Positions 9,967-29,859 of a stretch of DNA of 33,695 nucleotides are shown here, piece after piece. A program made the translations under genes and the position numbers. Numbering within the stretch: position 1 is the stretch's first letter; each line of letters starts with the position of its first letter. The stretch comes from a virus (taxonomy: Duplodnaviria; Heunggongvirae; Uroviricota; Caudoviricetes), in IMG/VR virus record IMGVR_UViG_2737471863_000001; one strand, written 5' to 3'. The notes under the pieces were generated by a model. It was not told the origin of the DNA, searched no databases, and saw nothing but the letters and a program-made list of their open reading frames with translations.

Positions 9967-11240
9967 CAGTCGGTAATCTCCACAGGCTGCGTTGGCAGTA
10001 TGAATGACGGATGGCGCAGGCGGTTACGCTGCACGATTTCATCCCGTCGGCTGGTGTCACCATGTTCGCGCCATGCCAGCAATGCGGCAGATGTGGTTGT
10101 GGTCAGCATTACCTGTCGGGTTTCCGGCAGACGGGCGGCACGCTCGCGGGCATCCGTAATCACGGCCTGCCGTAAATCGCGCAGCGTTCGCCACAATGCC
10201 CGCTGGTTATTTTCCACCGCTGCCACCGCCTGCTCATGCAGTTCAGCTGCCAGCGTGTCACCGGCAGATAACGCCGCATCACTGGTATCGAACGTCATCG
10301 AGGCCACGGCATTTGCCTGTCCCAGCAGGGTTTCCAGCACAACCACCTGGCGGAAGTCGTCAATGTTCTTCTGCAGGCTGTCAGATACCGGCTGATAACC
10401 CGGTGACAGCCCGATAGCAAAGCCGGGTTTGCCGTCTGCCACGCTGCCGGGCTTCACGGTGATATCTTCCGGCAGTGCGCCGGTGGCAACCTGTCGGGCG
10501 CGTTCTCCGGCCCACTGATTGCGTAATGTCGTGTAAACCGCCAGTGCTTCGGGTGGTTCCGTCACCAGATCAACCACGCCGTCGATGAACGAGGACAACT
10601 CACTGACCAGACGTCCCGGCGTGGCAATAATGGTTCCGGCCATCTCCTTAAAATGGTTCAGCCTGTCCATCCACTGATTCAGTGCTGCCGGTAGCGTGGG
10701 CAGGTTAGCCACAAGGTTTTCCATATCAGCCAGAAAGCTGTCGGCCATCTCACCCAGCCCGTCAAGTGCGCCGAACCAGTCGCCATCGTCGATGGCAGCT
10801 TTTACCGCATCAATGCCCGTCAGCACTTCCTGCTGCGTGTTATCCGCCGCAGACGGGAACAGGCGCTCGCCTGCCTCAAACACTTCAAAGGTGACATACG
10901 CAATGCCGTCTTCCTCCGTGCTGAGGCGATGGGTGACCTTGCCAACCTGTACGGTCTGTATCCCGAACCACGGGTGGATAAGCTCGCCGGGGCCGGGAGT
11001 ATTAAGCGCGTCTAAAAGGGCGTTTAAATCATCCTGGAAGTTTTTACCTGGCAGCTTTGCGTTAATCTGCTGTTGCCCCGGAACAGCCCCGTTATCATCC
11101 GTCCAGGCGGTTTCGCGCCGGGGATACGCGCGGGGAATCGCTCTGCGGCCACCGGTGCCTTCTGTATCCACCAGAAAGAAGGGAACGCCGCGAAACGAGG
11201 CATCGCGCAGCCCGTCCCATTTGCCTTTGCTCGTTGTCAT
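9966..11240 (-). CDS. tail/DNA circularisation protein (Mu P/gp43-like)
   Basis: 424 aa, ATG 11240 overlapping the tape-measure stop (TAATG). Confidence 0.7.
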   Translation of the reverse strand: MTTSKGKWDGLRDASFRGVPFFLVDTEGTGGRRAIPRAYPRRETAWTDDNGAVPGQQQINAKLPGKNFQDDLNALLDALNTPGPGELIHPWFGIQTVQVGKVTHRLSTEEDGIAYVTFEVFEAGERLFPSAADNTQQEVLTGIDAVKAAIDDGDWFGALDGLGEMADSFLADMENLVANLPTLPAALNQWMDRLNHFKEMAGTIIATPGRLVSELSSFIDGVVDLVTEPPEALAVYTTLRNQWAGERARQVATGALPEDITVKPGSVADGKPGFAIGLSPGYQPVSDSLQKNIDDFRQVVVLETLLGQANAVASMTFDTSDAALSAGDTLAAELHEQAVAAVENNQRALWRTLRDLRQAVITDARERAARLPETRQVMLTTTTSAALLAWREHGDTSRRDEIVQRNRLRHPSFILPTQPVEITD

Positions 11241-17427: not shown

Positions 17428-17477
17428 TGCCTTTTAAAAGGCAGTTAAAAGGGCATTCACAGCACCTTTTAACTGCG
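17428..17477 (-). terminator. tandem hairpins immediately downstream of the major capsid gene (possible attenuator)
   Basis: Palindrome ctgccttttaaaaggcag (17428-17445) and 12-bp stem gcagttaaaagg / ccttttaactgc (17442-17453, 17466-17477) with 12-nt loop. Confidence 0.4.
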
Positions 17478-17493
17478 GTTTACGGATGACGGG

Positions 17494-18399
17494 TTATGCC
17501 GGGGTGGTGATGTACGGGCTGTCCACGATCTCCACATCCTTGTACCAGATGTTGGAATCGCCGCCGTTAACCAGCATGGCGTCAATAATGCGCTTCGCAG
17601 CCGCGCGGTTTTTCGGCCCCACCACAAGAGTGGTCGGGCGGATGCCCAGCGGCTCACCGTTGGTGCCCTTCATGCCCCGCAGCAACTCATTGGCTTTTTT
17701 GTAGTTCTCCACCGTCAGTGCTGCACGGGAACCGACGGCGGTCTGCCAGAAGCCGAAGCCCGCATTACAGCGACCGTCCACCCCGTACAGGAACTCGTGG
17801 TTCTTGAAGGTGTGCTCGCTGTTCAGATCGTCCAGGGCTTCAAATTTAAAGGCGCGTCGCGTCTGCCAGATGATGGGTTTCAGCACCTGCGACTCATCAA
17901 TCAGAAACCACGGTTCGCCCTGGTCCGTTCCTGGTGTACCGACAACGTTGCTGTAGGTGCCATCACCCAGCGGGTGGTCTTCATCAAAGAAGTTCTGGCC
18001 GTCAAAGCACAAAGTTTTGAATCCGGCACACAGCAGGGCGTAACACAGCTTGTCCGGGAACACGGCTGTCATACGTCCATAGCGTTCAGCAGTAATGCTG
18101 TACTGACCAATCTGGTCATCTTCAATGTGTTCGCGCTTAACGCGAATGGAACTTTCCCAGAGTTTGTTGGTGATGGTGTAACCATAACCGTCCAGCGTTG
18201 CCAGCTGACGCTCACCGACCCATTCTTTGATGTCCGGTAAATCTTTCATCCAGCCGTAGGTGTTGGAGGCTGACGAACTCGGCACCTCAGAAGCAATGCG
18301 ATTCCACTGCGGTTCGACACCACTCAGTCCACGGGTAAAGGCGGCGCTCAGGCAGGTGGTCAGTGCATGAAGGATTTCAGAACTGACAGTCTGTCCCAT
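17494..18399 (-). CDS. major capsid protein (Mu T-like)
   Basis: 301 aa, ATG 18399 overlapping the I stop (TAATG); position after protease/scaffold. Confidence 0.85.
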   Translation of the reverse strand: MGQTVSSEILHALTTCLSAAFTRGLSGVEPQWNRIASEVPSSSASNTYGWMKDLPDIKEWVGERQLATLDGYGYTITNKLWESSIRVKREHIEDDQIGQYSITAERYGRMTAVFPDKLCYALLCAGFKTLCFDGQNFFDEDHPLGDGTYSNVVGTPGTDQGEPWFLIDESQVLKPIIWQTRRAFKFEALDDLNSEHTFKNHEFLYGVDGRCNAGFGFWQTAVGSRAALTVENYKKANELLRGMKGTNGEPLGIRPTTLVVGPKNRAAAKRIIDAMLVNGGDSNIWYKDVEIVDSPYITTPA

Positions 18400-19361
18400 T
18401 AGTTGTTCTCCTGTTTTGGTTTAGCGGCGAGGAACTCTTCCCCGGTAATACCCATGCTGCGACACATCGCCAGTTCGGCGTCGGTCAGTGTCTGCGCGGG
18501 TTTATCCTTGCCCTGGCTGGGCTTGTCGTTGTTCACCAGCGGCTGTGTGCCTTTGGTGTATTCCGCAAACTGTTTGCGGCCTTCTTCCGTGCGGCAGGTG
18601 GCAAGGAACATGTCACGGTTTGCCGGGGCCACTTTTCCGGCTTCGATGGCCGCATCCACAAGCGCCCCGGCTTCCTTCTCTTCCAGTTGCTGAAGGCGTT
18701 TTTCTGCGGTTTCGGCACGGTTCAGTGCCAGATTGTGGGTTTCCACCGGCACAAACTTCGTCAGATCAGGTGTCTGTGCGCGGTTCAGCGCCACCTGTTC
18801 GTTCTCCTGAAGTTGTTTAATGGCAGCCACGGTATCGTCCACCGTAGCGGATTCAGCCAGCCCAAGCAGGCCGGTGATTTGCACAGGTACTGTCATCGGG
18901 TTTTTCTCCGTATTCAGTGCAGGAAAATCCAGGTTAGGTTTGTTGGTCAGCCCGACGCTGGACAGGCGCGTCACCACACCCTCCGCGTCATAGAAAAACG
19001 CCGGGCTGTAATAGCGGTAGCGACGCTCACTCAGCATCCAGCGGGCGTACTCGCTCCAGACAACACGGCCTTCAATGGTGCCGCCATCCGTCACCCGCAG
19101 TTCTTCCACCCAGCCATACGCCGGGGCTTCATCACCGCGTTGCCCTTTAATTTCGGTGGCATGTTCAATGTCCACCGGAATTTTGATGTCGGACGAACGG
19201 GCGATCACCTCATGCGGATTGCGGTTAATCCACGTCCGTCCATCGCGCCCGGTGAACTCACCCGCAGGGACGAGCTCAAGCCATTCCGGCAGTTGAGCAG
19301 GTGTCAGCTCAGGGATGGGTTCTGGCAGGGAAAAACACAGCGCCAGCAGTTCCGGTTGCAT
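18399..19361 (-). CDS. head maturation protease / scaffold protein (Mu I-like)
   Basis: 320 aa, ATG 19361; Glu/Ala-rich coiled-coil C-terminal half typical of scaffold. Confidence 0.75.
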   Translation of the reverse strand: MQPELLALCFSLPEPIPELTPAQLPEWLELVPAGEFTGRDGRTWINRNPHEVIARSSDIKIPVDIEHATEIKGQRGDEAPAYGWVEELRVTDGGTIEGRVVWSEYARWMLSERRYRYYSPAFFYDAEGVVTRLSSVGLTNKPNLDFPALNTEKNPMTVPVQITGLLGLAESATVDDTVAAIKQLQENEQVALNRAQTPDLTKFVPVETHNLALNRAETAEKRLQQLEEKEAGALVDAAIEAGKVAPANRDMFLATCRTEEGRKQFAEYTKGTQPLVNNDKPSQGKDKPAQTLTDAELAMCRSMGITGEEFLAAKPKQENN

Positions 19362-19410
19362 GTCAGTCTCCGTCGTTTGGGGTTACCGACGGTCAGTATG
19401 CGGAAGGCAG

Positions 19411-19436
19411 AAAAAAAGCCGGATTTACCGGCTTCA
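19411..19436 (-). terminator. rho-independent terminator (second of two after F)
   Basis: Minus strand reads AAGCCGG-TAAAT-CCGGCTT followed by TTTTTTT; identical to the copy at 27131-27156. Confidence 0.5.
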
Positions 19437-19523
19437 CTGAAAACAGGGAAATACCCCCTTCAAAACCCCTTCAAAAACGCCACAGCACCTTCAAAAAAGT
19501 CAGAATGCACATTCACGCCATCA

Positions 19524-26478: not shown

Positions 26479-27075
26479 TCACCCCCGCGTGGCGGACATG
26501 ATGCCCAGAGGGGTATCGATGATTTCCAGACAGGCGTCGGTCAGCTTTTCCATGCGGTTAAACCAGCCGTTCAGGTATTTGCCCTGGGCGGGTTTTGATT
26601 TGATGATGTCGGCATAAAAGCGGGAGCGACGGACAATACAGCGGGCCAGCAGCCAGTCAGGGGTGGACTGGCTCACGGCCTTGCGGGTACGCGGCCCGAT
26701 GATGCCGTCAGCATCCACATCAGCGGCTTCCTGCAAAAGTTTGATAGCCTTTTTAACGCCATGCTGAACCGCCGCATCAAACACAAAAAGCGCCACGCCA
26801 TCAGGCCACTGGTCACATCCGGCAGGCAGCCAGTAATCACGCAGGTAAATCTGTGCGGCCTGTTCGCGGGTTAAATCTTTGATGCGGGTATCCGGTTTAC
26901 CGTCACCGTTGACATCGGTTTTGCCGTCAATCACACCGTCGCGGCGGTCAGAAATGCCGTATTTGGTTTCGCCGCCACGGTCAGTGGAGTCATTGACATA
27001 GACGCCTTCGATATCGGGACGCAGAATGAAATTCAGCGCATGCTCAAAGGCCGGGGAGAATTTTTGATTTTCCAT
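26479..27075 (-). CDS. endolysin: GH108-type lysozyme domain with C-terminal peptidoglycan-binding domain, no N-terminal SAR/TM segment
   Basis: 198 aa, ATG 27075; hallmark IEGVYVNDSTDRGGETKYGIS of the GH108 family; no hydrophobic N-terminus. Confidence 0.8.
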   Translation of the reverse strand: MENQKFSPAFEHALNFILRPDIEGVYVNDSTDRGGETKYGISDRRDGVIDGKTDVNGDGKPDTRIKDLTREQAAQIYLRDYWLPAGCDQWPDGVALFVFDAAVQHGVKKAIKLLQEAADVDADGIIGPRTRKAVSQSTPDWLLARCIVRRSRFYADIIKSKPAQGKYLNGWFNRMEKLTDACLEIIDTPLGIMSATRG

Positions 27076-27130
27076 AAAAACACCTGTGAAGCAGAGTTAA
27101 ACGTGGTCTGCTTCATGGTGCCGGAGGCAT

Positions 27131-27156
27131 AAAAAAAGCCGGATTTACCGGCTTCA
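27131..27156 (-). terminator. rho-independent terminator between the Mor/C gene and lys
   Basis: Same 26-nt element as 19411-19436; begins 5 nt after the Mor/C stop (27161). Confidence 0.55.
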
Positions 27157-27160
27157 TTGA

Positions 27161-27610
27161 TTAAGGGCGTCGTGGCGGACGACGAACGGGGTGAGGCAGG
27201 TTCGGGGAGGGGTAAAACAAATCCGGCTGGTATTTATTGCGCTCCAGACGTCGCATCCGTTTGATGGCCTTGTAGACGGTTTTATACGTCACTCCGTAAC
27301 GCTGAACCAGTTCAGGAATATTATGGCCGTTAAAATCACGCCAGATACGCATATCCCGGACAAGATTCTCCAGAATATTCCCCCTCGGAACATAAACCTG
27401 CATCCCGCCGATATGGCGACAAATCGCCACAACCAGCTCAAGGGAATGAGCAGGGTCTGCGCCAATCCGGGCCAGCTCTTTACGCAGCAGTGCGTTCAGT
27501 TCAGAAAGTAACGCCGGATAAGCGGTGTTTTCCTGGTAATCATGAAGATATTCCAGAACGCTGTCGTCCCGGAGGTCTTCGAATAAATCCTGCTCTTTCA
27601 TCTGTTTCAT
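27161..27610 (-). CDS. Mor/C-family transcription activator (cannot say whether Mor or C orthologue)
   Basis: 149 aa, ATG 27610 overlapping the gemA stop (ATGA); N-terminal acidic region and C-terminal HTH VYKAIKRMRRLE; sits between gemA and lys. Confidence 0.7.
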   Translation of the reverse strand: MKQMKEQDLFEDLRDDSVLEYLHDYQENTAYPALLSELNALLRKELARIGADPAHSLELVVAICRHIGGMQVYVPRGNILENLVRDMRIWRDFNGHNIPELVQRYGVTYKTVYKAIKRMRRLERNKYQPDLFYPSPNLPHPVRRPPRRP

Positions 27611-28700: not shown

Positions 28701-29235
28701 GTTCACTGACTTCCTGTGTTGCGGCCGGAGCTGGTGAATAATCAAGAATGAGATAGCGCATGACGTGGTCGGTGATATTCCAGCCACTGGAACCACAAAT
28801 AAAGCGCCCCAGCCGGATATCGATATACGCCATCACAAAACGGGGCATTCCCTGTTTGCACATCTCGTCATCCACTTCAGCAACGATGTAAACCGACTCG
28901 CAGGTCAGTACGCCTGTCGCAAATTCTTTTGCCAGTGCCGGAATGGCATTGCCTTCCAGCCAGGGCAAAGAGCGGCGGAACGCGCACCATTGAGCATCAT
29001 CAACATCGGGGTGTTCCGTTGTTGCGTTTCGTCTTACAGGAGGCGTCGGACGAGGGCGCGGAACGTCATAAAATCCGTTGCATTCAGTGAGAACTCCGGC
29101 ATCAACCGCATCACGCAGGAAATACACCATTGAGGAAGGTGGCATCTTCATTTTTTCAGCCAGAACACCACAGGTCAGACGCCCGTAAGTCCGTAATAAT
29201 GTGCTGACACCGTTCAAAACTTTTGCATCAACCAT
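28693..29235 (-). CDS. hypothetical early-region protein (possible N-terminal winged-helix)
   Basis: 180 aa, ATG 29235 with AAGGAA SD; first gene after the 99-bp spacer downstream of gam. Confidence 0.45.
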   Translation of the reverse strand: MVDAKVLNGVSTLLRTYGRLTCGVLAEKMKMPPSSMVYFLRDAVDAGVLTECNGFYDVPRPRPTPPVRRNATTEHPDVDDAQWCAFRRSLPWLEGNAIPALAKEFATGVLTCESVYIVAEVDDEMCKQGMPRFVMAYIDIRLGRFICGSSGWNITDHVMRYLILDYSPAPAATQEVSEHD

Positions 29236-29334
29236 TTTTTTATTCCTTAGTAATCTGTTTCAGGCGCGAGCAATCCCCTGACGCATCGCGCCATAATTAA
29301 AAGAAAGTGAATTAATTAAATATTAATGGTGGTA

Positions 29335-29859
29335 TTAAATACCGGCTTCCTGTTCAAACGGAATAATGGAAAAATCTTCAATTCCAGACTTAACTGTAAT
29401 TCCGGCAACACCTGCGACCGCTTTCGGTTCCAGTAAAATCGCTTCCTTGTTGATTTCCTGTTTCGTGCGAATAAAGCGTTGCAGGCCAAGACGCTCCAGC
29501 GTTTCCATCACCGCATCCACACCGCGAATACTTACCGATGGTGGGCGCTGACGCCATGACACATCGCCGGTTACCAGGTTCGCCGTCTTCACCTTGCCGC
29601 CGTTCGTCAGTTCGTCGCGGTTCGCTTCACACCATCCCTGAACGCCTTTTGAAAGGGTTTCGATACTGGTTTTTAGCGGCGCAATCTGTGAGGCGTATTT
29701 CTCTGTAATTTCAGCGATAGCGTCATTCATTTCCGTTTCAAGTCGTGCCGCTTCGCGTTGCAGGTCACCAATCCGGCGGATATCACATACCACGGCATCG
29801 CGGGACTGTGGAACATAAGCCGCTGCGGCATTCTTGATTCGTTTTGCTGGTTTAGCCAT
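29335..29859 (-). CDS. gam: Gam host-nuclease inhibitor (DNA-end-binding, Ku-like)
   Basis: 174 aa, the Mu Gam length; ATG 29859 with AGGAG SD; sequence closely resembles recalled Mu Gam. Confidence 0.85.
   Translation of the reverse strand: MAKPAKRIKNAAAAYVPQSRDAVVCDIRRIGDLQREAARLETEMNDAIAEITEKYASQIAPLKTSIETLSKGVQGWCEANRDELTNGGKVKTANLVTGDVSWRQRPPSVSIRGVDAVMETLERLGLQRFIRTKQEINKEAILLEPKAVAGVAGITVKSGIEDFSIIPFEQEAGI

Follow-up and report, generated by a model that had tools for sequence, protein, structure and literature searches.

Predicted fold-back RNA structures at the putative Mor-type late promoters of lys and I in a Mu-like prophage of Escherichia coli

Two dyad elements stand immediately upstream of the lys and I genes of a Mu-like prophage. 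On balance, they are probably the apical stems of a fold-back RNA wrapped around Mor-dependent, Pm-type late promoters, which would insulate the translation of lys and I. This reading is drawn from homology to the phage Mu promoter Pm, from predicted folds and from arms that co-vary across related prophages.

Results

The prophage carries a single Mor-family activator

The window, that is, the whole stretch of 33,695 nucleotides that was analysed, is a Mu-like prophage of E. coli with all phage genes on the minus strand. It matches strain XJ34 with 100% identity over the query and has relatives in about 50 E. coli genomes. Along the minus strand, gemA is followed by a Mor-family gene, lys, about 7 kb of lysis, terminase and portal genes, an F-like minor head gene, the I protease gene and the major head gene T. 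The gene names lys and I given in the initial annotation were upheld by Pfam, which identified a GH108 endolysin and a Mu-like I protease (Table 1). The Mor-family protein shares 63% identity with Mu Mor and 32% with Mu C, and judged by this comparison the gene is a Mor orthologue. A phmmer search revealed no further Mor/C-like ORFs in the window. The prophage has a single Mor orthologue and no C gene, with Pm-type promoters directly before lys and I; this arrangement suggests a two-tier cascade from early to late transcription, as against the early, middle and late tiers of Mu.

Relatives with about 88% identity were found in E. coli STEC346 (L002, 9591-10597) and RIVM_C019217 (L003, 9591-10577). 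Their Mor is shorter (136 aa as against 149 aa), and mor is separated from the promoter cassette described below by an inserted hypothetical ORF, about 160 aa in length; the cassette and dyad still adjoin lys.

Other elements were also seen in the window. In the mom position there is a 248-aa ORF with a com-like zinc-finger ORF upstream of it (623-1490, minus strand), and the region is preceded by a GATC-containing palindrome, gaCGATCGATaacatcATATCGATCGtc (1537-1564). A Pm-type cassette is absent from this com/mom-like operon. In the gap between F and I, three direct repeats of TTTTGAAGG (19457-19496, minus strand) are flanked by terminator-like hairpins at 19552-19530 and 19435-19415. A second terminator-like hairpin lies directly after the F gene, so that I has two terminators ahead of it; the annotated gyrase cut site of Mu sits in the equivalent G-I gap. 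Just past T (17441-17476, minus strand) there is a perfect 11-bp stem, CAGTTAAAAGG...CCTTTTAACTG, followed by a second small palindrome; attenuation or RNA stability downstream of the capsid gene is a possible role. The only sizeable non-coding gap within the early region is a 99-nt AT-rich stretch after the gam-like gene (29235-29335, minus strand), with a GC-rich hairpin GGCGCGA...TCGCGCC.

Table 1. Features at the lys and I loci of the window (all on the minus strand).
Feature	Position	Strand	Details
Mor-family activator gene	27161-27610	-	149 aa; Pfam Mor PF08765, E 3.6e-30
Pm-like cassette upstream of lys	27119-27160	-	Repeat D8; aligns with Mu Pm
Predicted Mor box, lys	27143-27158	-	AATGA-AGCCGG-TAAAT; homologous to Mu AGTAA-AGCCGG-TTAAT, -51 to -36
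Terminator-like hairpin + T7, overlapping lys Mor box	27131-27155	-	GAAGCCGG-TAAAT-CCGGCTT; 8 pairs, 5-nt loop (terminator scan)
Predicted -10, lys	27115-27120	-	CACCAT; register of Mu Pm TATCCT; offsets 33-38
Helix P1, lys	27071-27125	-	UCCG (27125-27122) with UGGA (27074-27071); covers UG of lys AUG (27075-27073)
Helix P2, lys	27080-27121	-	GCACC (27121-27117) with GGUGU (27084-27080); covers Shine-Dalgarno AGGTG (27085-27081); MFE and centroid
Lys dyad, apical helix P3 of the predicted fold-back	27087-27115	-	9 bp, 11-nt loop
Predicted lys operon +1	27107	-	A; homology transfer from Mu Pm
lys	26479-27075	-	GH108 endolysin with PG_binding_3 domain; Pfam PF05838, PF09374
Pm-like cassette upstream of I	19399-19440	-	Repeat D8
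Predicted Mor box, I	19438-19423	-	AGTGA-AGCCGG-TAAAT; homology to Mu Pm
Terminator-like hairpin + T7 of I cassette	19435-19411	-	8-bp stem, 5-nt loop (terminator scan)
Predicted -10, I	19400-19395	-	CATACT; register of Mu Pm
Possible outer helices, I	19350-19405	-	GCAU (19401-19398) with AUGC (19361-19358, start codon); UUCC (19405-19402) with GGAA (19353-19350); centroid
I dyad	19370-19392	-	6 bp, 11-nt loop; 3′ arm overlaps Shine-Dalgarno GGAG (19371-19368)
Predicted I operon +1	19387	-	G; homology transfer from Mu Pm
I	18399-19361	-	Mu-like head protease/scaffold gene; Pfam PF10123, E 3.4e-44

The two dyads share a register

The dyads described in the initial annotation were confirmed. At lys, perfect 9-bp arms TGAAGCAGA (27115-27107) and TCTGCTTCA (27095-27087) enclose an 11-nt spacer and, as had been claimed, the lys ATG (A at 27075) is 12 nt away from the last base. 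At I, the perfect 6-bp arms CCGTCG (19392-19387) and CGACGG (19375-19370) enclose 11 nt as well, and the last base was correctly placed 9 nt from the I ATG (19361). A terminator had been said to precede each dyad, and a terminator-like hairpin with T7 is present there. The like geometry with unlike sequences also holds, and it recurs in some 20 families whose arms co-vary.

The window has four perfect 9-bp/N11 inverted repeats where 0.1 would be expected, and the lys hairpin folded in isolation has an energy of -10.6 kcal/mol (z -4.6). For perfect 6-bp/N11 repeats the count is 14 and the expectation 7.7; taken alone, the I dyad (isolated hairpin, z -2.2) is therefore unremarkable. Both dyads nevertheless occupy the same register. 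When counted from the A of AGCCGG in the 42-nt repeat shared by the two loci, the 5′ arms end at offset 46 and the 3′ arms start at offset 58. The odds of six fixed Watson-Crick pairs at an identical register are about 1 in 4,000, which raises the I dyad above chance.

Pm-type promoter cassettes precede lys and I

A 42-nt direct repeat (D8) lies ahead of both dyads, its two copies being 90% identical; the repeat pattern was not found elsewhere in the window. By alignment, D8 is homologous to the Mu middle promoter Pm, with the Mor box, the hairpin with its T-run and the -10 all in register. The sequence of Mu Pm is cAGTAAAGCCGGTTAATCCGGCTTTTTTTacgtcctcaaTATCCTg and the consensus of the window copies is cA(A/G)TGAAGCCGGTAAATCCGGCTTTTTTT(a/c)TGCCT.C.GCA(CCAT/TACT)g. 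Pm has been located at the corresponding hairpin by primer annotation (PMC9239132). According to the literature, Pm is without a -35 hexamer, and the Mor element is 16 bp long, with two 5-bp inverted repeats around a G/C-rich hexanucleotide, and extends from -51 to -36. The promoter scan likewise detected no sigma-70 -35/-10 pair at the cassettes of the window. The symmetry of the half-sites in the Mor box is only 3/5, the element being of the 5-6-5 kind with a G/C-rich spacer centred at -43.5. Positions A2 and T6 of the -10 hexamer are invariant in 20/20 families.

The hairpin ahead of the dyads had been annotated as a terminator only. This description is too narrow, as the homologous Mor box also lies in that hairpin. 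The equivalent hairpin at Mu Pm is presumably the terminator of early transcripts, in agreement with the consensus scan. The cassettes are best read as Mor-dependent, Pm-type promoters that would drive the late operons directly and overlap terminators for incoming transcription. This reading follows from the presence of a single Mor orthologue and from the position of the cassette, which remains beside lys in the relatives with an extra ORF between mor and lys. With looser Mor-box patterns and T-run/box/hexamer patterns, these two remained the only Pm-type promoters of the window; a box-like match at 8522-8537 was weak and was rejected, as it is inside a coding sequence and is without T-run or hexamer.

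The cassette hairpin was scanned in genome and viral contig collections. In Mu-like prophages of Enterobacterales the hairpin comes with the Mor half-site, the box and the hexamer. The exact 22-nt hairpin AGCCGGTTAATCCGGCTTTTTT is also common in unrelated bacteria (Bacteroidota and others; L012, L032, L058) as a terminator between an A-run and a T-run. The 5′ half-site of the Mor box is kept in the Mu-like contexts, with A-runs in its place in the unrelated terminators that have the same hairpin. Since the hairpin recurs as a generic terminator, it cannot by itself identify a Mor promoter, for which the half-site, box and hexamer are required as well. All copies were retrieved with one exact hairpin pattern as query, and thus the sample spans one clade of promoters.

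Predicted transcription starts fall on the last base of the 5′ arm

The permanganate-reactive bottom-strand T residues published for Mu Pm are at -12, -4, -1, +1, +3 and +4. The Mu sequence has A residues at these positions only when +1 is set 46 nt downstream of the A of AGCCGG; with this placement AGTAA-AGCCGG-TTAAT becomes the -51 to -36 element of Mu. On transfer by homology to the window, +1 is predicted to coincide with the final base of the 5′ arm at both dyads, which would then extend from about -8 to +21 at lys and from about -5 to +18 at I. An mRNA initiated there would contain the loop and the 3′ arm and be without the 5′ arm, so that only RNA coming from upstream would be able to form the hairpin.

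The starts so predicted bear on several proposals of the initial annotation. Of the suggestion that the dyads are RNA hairpins affecting translation, the kind of explanation stands; the hairpin is probably not part of the late 5′ UTRs, as +1 lies inside the 5′ arm. For the same reason, a 5′-terminal stabilising stem-loop was rejected. Starts downstream of the dyads had been named as evidence against the proposal; the predicted starts go halfway, falling inside them. The other suggestion, that the dyads bind the activator, found no support: Mor and C of Mu bind at about -56 to -33, and the two dyads share no sequence, with one Mor-family protein to serve both.

Folding of the lys and I leaders

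Leader RNAs were compared as read-through transcripts and as transcripts initiated at the predicted +1. The lys read-through leader has a predicted energy of -20.8 kcal/mol (z -3.63, 0/200 shuffles), with both the Shine-Dalgarno sequence (SD) and the AUG paired in the MFE and centroid structures. The +1-initiated lys leader has next to no structure (-5.2 kcal/mol, z -0.26). The outcome is robust to up to 190 nt of added upstream context. The 9-bp dyad itself leaves the SD uncovered, and sequestration hangs on the flanking helices of 4-5 bp (P1 and P2, Table 1). The differential in opening cost between the two forms of the lys leader is 5.4, 4.2 or 1.8 kcal/mol, depending on the 3′ context. One natural variant, L210, loses one pair of the lys stem.

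At I, the whole read-through leader is no more stable than its shuffles (z -0.79), and the +1-initiated leader is unusually unstructured (z +1.81). The opening differential is 4.5, 0.5 or 2.1 kcal/mol by 3′ context and vanishes with 32 nt of coding sequence; shuffled 5′ halves matched the native leader in 11/100 cases. The stem is broken in natural variants by a T-to-G change (L093) or at the innermost pair (L003). Prophages of Raoultella (L021) and Kluyvera (L081) have orthologous I stems of 8-9 bp in the corresponding position, with differentials of 8-11 kcal/mol. The I dyad was ruled out on energy grounds as an independently significant structure. The case at lys is strong; the I dyad of the window appears weak alone and is propped mainly by its register and by the stronger stems of its orthologues. 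Compared with the other families described below, both leaders of the window rank with the weaker examples. A search of the whole window with Rfam 15 gave no match at gathering score, the only sub-threshold matches being on the terminator hairpin.

Complementarity of the arms is kept across families

About 20 families of cassettes were collected; they precede GH108 lys orthologues with diverged N-termini, three variants of I, and gene 18 of Mu. The sequence from the hexamer to the SD is unrelated among families, and yet a hairpin is present there in almost every one, with a loop of 4 to about 30 nt. The predicted cost of opening the SD-AUG region is 10-21 kcal/mol in read-through RNA versus 2-7 kcal/mol in +1-initiated RNA. 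In most families the native 5′ half is matched by only 0-1/100 shuffled halves; the exceptions include the window-type I leaders, where 8-77/100 shuffled halves match or exceed it. The mean differential is 7.3, 5.9 and 5.2 kcal/mol with 15, 32 and 59 nt of coding context, and the families that exceed 2 kcal/mol number 20, 18 and 17 out of 20, respectively. Positions -7 to -1, at each of which any of the four bases may be found, pair with a probability of 0.77-0.99, which drops steeply beyond +2. Searching for further I-type promoters with box and hexamer (GCCTTCCNCATACTG) yielded nothing but chance matches outside the three variants already collected.

A plain MAFFT alignment of 23 leaders placed the length variation beside the SD and not in the loop, which made it useless for counting pairs. 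A swap test and a covariance-model alignment were therefore used instead. In the swap test, cognate arms gave -9.07 kcal/mol versus -4.19 kcal/mol for non-cognate arms, and 0/20,000 permutations reached the cognate mean. In the covariance-model alignment, which is fitted to the structure and thus counts as support for the swap test and not as independent evidence, 89% of cells are paired versus 74.5% in shuffles and 36-51% in slid controls, and the covariation score is 0.286 versus 0.123. Pairs changed on both sides number 12/18 overall, with 7/9 in P3 and 4/4 in P1, with 88.7% of cells paired; in P2, GCAC/GUGC is conserved across the lys-type families. G-U pairs are present on the mRNA-sense strand, an observation that speaks for RNA more than for a cruciform or a protein site on double-stranded DNA; the cruciform reading was set aside for this reason.

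Similar folds are predicted at Pm and PI of Mu

In Mu itself (L007, NC_000929), Pm (1212-1251) and PI (10027-10059) have a like predicted fold-back over the starts of gene 18 and gene I. The published start of Pm is anchored by permanganate footprints and that of PI was placed from S1 mapping. For gene 18 at Pm, the opening cost is 11.9 kcal/mol in read-through RNA versus 2.5 kcal/mol from the published start, a difference reached by 0/300 shuffles; for gene I at PI, it is 14.3 versus 2.2 kcal/mol, and 4/300 shuffles reach it. The PI dyad, CTGCTCA-N10-TGAGCAG, spans the published start, which, as inferred from the published oligonucleotide design, falls within the CTGCTCA arm. At Plys a GCCATCA/TGATGGC helix lies over the AUGs. 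The shuffle test at Mu Plys was not significant (41/300), and a fold-back is not claimed there.

Discussion

A model for conditional translation of lys and I

We infer Mor binding, the transcription starts, the read-through RNA and the effect on translation from the sequences, the Pm homology, the predicted folds and the covariation presented above. The proposed elements follow one another in the DNA as a Mor box overlapping the terminator hairpin and T-run, a short conserved box, the -10, the 5′ arm with +1 at its end, the loop, the 3′ arm, the Shine-Dalgarno sequence and the AUG. Read-through RNA, whether from early transcripts or from host transcripts entering the prophage, would carry both halves of the structure; its -10 region and box would base-pair to the SD and AUG, leaving lys and I poorly translated. 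Once Mor accumulates, RNA polymerase would start at the last base of the 5′ arm, and the resulting mRNA, being without the inhibitory half, would have an open ribosome-binding site. In the lys family of the window, the same helix followed by U5 could double as a second terminator for read-through RNA.

Weighing of alternative explanations

Termination might instead be the main role of the long lys helix (P2+P3) and the UUUUU that follows it (27080-27076), with the second terminator disarmed by the internal start. The window does have a GC-closed stem directly followed by U5, and L093 has a perfect 16-bp stem followed by UUUUAU (-30.8 kcal/mol). However, by inspection a U-run is found between the SD and AUG in only about 3 of some 17 lys-type families, so termination is not a general function; the I leader is without a U-run, an 11-nt loop is atypical and the terminator scan made no call. 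As the main role, termination is thus quite unlikely; a terminator role is compatible with sequestration of the ribosome-binding site and does not exclude it. Little probability is given to hairpins at or near the 5′ end of late mRNAs that start upstream of the dyads, tuning stability or translation. Stem-loops near the 5′ end are known stabilisers of mRNA, and the hairpins here are stable and conserved. Against this, the sole conserved -10-like hexamer stands 0-3 nt ahead of the 5′ arms, in register with Mu Pm, nothing -10-like occurs between the T-run and the hexamer, the pairing probability drops exactly at +1/+2, and the published Mu PI start is likewise inside the 5′ arm. The probability is slim that the long helix is a site for RNase III or another nuclease that cuts the lys and I messages free of upstream RNA. 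Phages often have RNase III sites between cistrons, and the composite lys helix is about 18 bp long; but the helices are interrupted and shorter than typical substrates, the I stem has only 6 bp, and a 5′ arm ending exactly at the predicted +1 would be left unexplained.

Perfect palindromic arms and a spacer fixed at 11 bp at both sites could also suggest double-stranded DNA sites for a dimeric protein such as Mor, a late repressor or a host factor. The two sites, however, have no sequence in common, and about 20 families with unrelated arms keep the complementarity, which points to a folded strand and not to a recognition site. The G-U pairs occur on one strand only, the loops range from 4 to about 30 nt, the footprints of Mor and C are at about -56 to -33, and the Mu reporters with Pm from -62 to +10 and Plys from -60 to +8 work without the downstream arm. 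Protein sites are therefore barely probable at all. A different question is whether the window I dyad is a chance or decaying feature of little function, with only the lys structure being functional; this is unlikely, though its chance is large enough to carry weight. Repeats of 6 bp/N11 are common (14 vs 7.7 expected), the leader z is -0.79, the differential vanishes with 32 nt of coding context, and the stem is disrupted in variants L093 and L003. On the other side stand the register identical to that of the lys dyad, the overlap of the 3′ arm with the SD, the orthologues from Raoultella and Kluyvera with 8-9 bp stems and differentials of 8-11 kcal/mol, and the unusually unstructured +1-initiated I leader (z +1.81). 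Finally, there is a faint chance that the co-varying dyads act as sense-strand DNA hairpins, instead of or besides RNA hairpins. During replication of the transposing phage DNA, the region from -8 to +21 would fold on the single strand and help to open or mark the Mor-dependent promoter. Middle and late transcription of Mu depend on DNA replication, and a link to the sliding clamp has recently been reported; if true, the DNA hairpin would give this dependence a structural basis.

Implications of the fold-back

Fold-back at the Mor-type promoters of Mu-like phages, apparently including Pm and PI of Mu, is undescribed in the literature searched, older subscription papers lying outside that search. 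If translational insulation by fold-back is correct, the late operons of a large group of Enterobacterales Mu-like prophages would be guarded by a compact insulator of three layers, namely a terminator that is at once the activator site, a promoter dependent on the activator, and a fold-back that ties translation to initiation at that promoter. It would explain how a transposable phage inserted in random host operons escapes premature endolysin synthesis from early or host read-through, and it would provide promoter and start predictions at base resolution for many unannotated prophages. The cassette may also be a natural template for insulated synthetic promoters.

Comparison with known systems

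Fold-back control is a mechanism of a known kind. Translational control by a sequestering helix is established for T4 gene e (lysozyme) and also for soc, 49 and I-TevI (McPheeters et al. 1986; reviewed in PMC3014915). As proposed here, the SD and AUG of the T4 endolysin gene are locked in a helix on transcripts from upstream (PMC3014915). The proposed likeness extends to a late promoter within the DNA of the 5′ strand, which yields late transcripts that are without that strand and are translated, and to the conservation of the structure among relatives. T4 differs in that its late promoters use gp55/gp33 and TATAAATA, whereas here the promoter is of the sigma-70 type with a Mor-family box and is immediately preceded by a terminator overlapping the activator site. 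Control of T4 gene e was shown experimentally, whereas the present Mu-like case is purely computational.

In IS10, the ribosome-binding site pairs with sequence upstream of the start of its own promoter, blocking read-through translation. This fold-back inhibition of external transcripts in IS10/Tn10 was reportedly described by Davis, Simons and Kleckner in 1985. IS10 differs in being an insertion sequence with a transposase gene, without an activator or terminator overlap. The 5′ stabilising stem-loop of the ompA type is alike in being a stable hairpin near the 5′ region of an mRNA; it needs, however, the hairpin in the first nucleotides of the transcript, whereas here the predicted start is inside the hairpin.

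The closest parallels are in Mu itself. Plys and PI of Mu lie at matching genomic locations, one behind the activator gene and one ahead of I, and follow terminators, but they differ in their activator (C) and in its binding sequence. Mu Pm has nearly the same hairpin with T7, a homologue of the Mor box, an identical -10 register and an orthologous activator. It differs in that it drives the middle (C) operon, the late genes of Mu using C-dependent promoters with a different box, whereas the present prophage has no C gene and two Pm-type promoters directly before lys and I. As Pm and PI of Mu, with their published starts, show the same predicted logic, fold-back insulation is directly testable in the best-studied member of the group.
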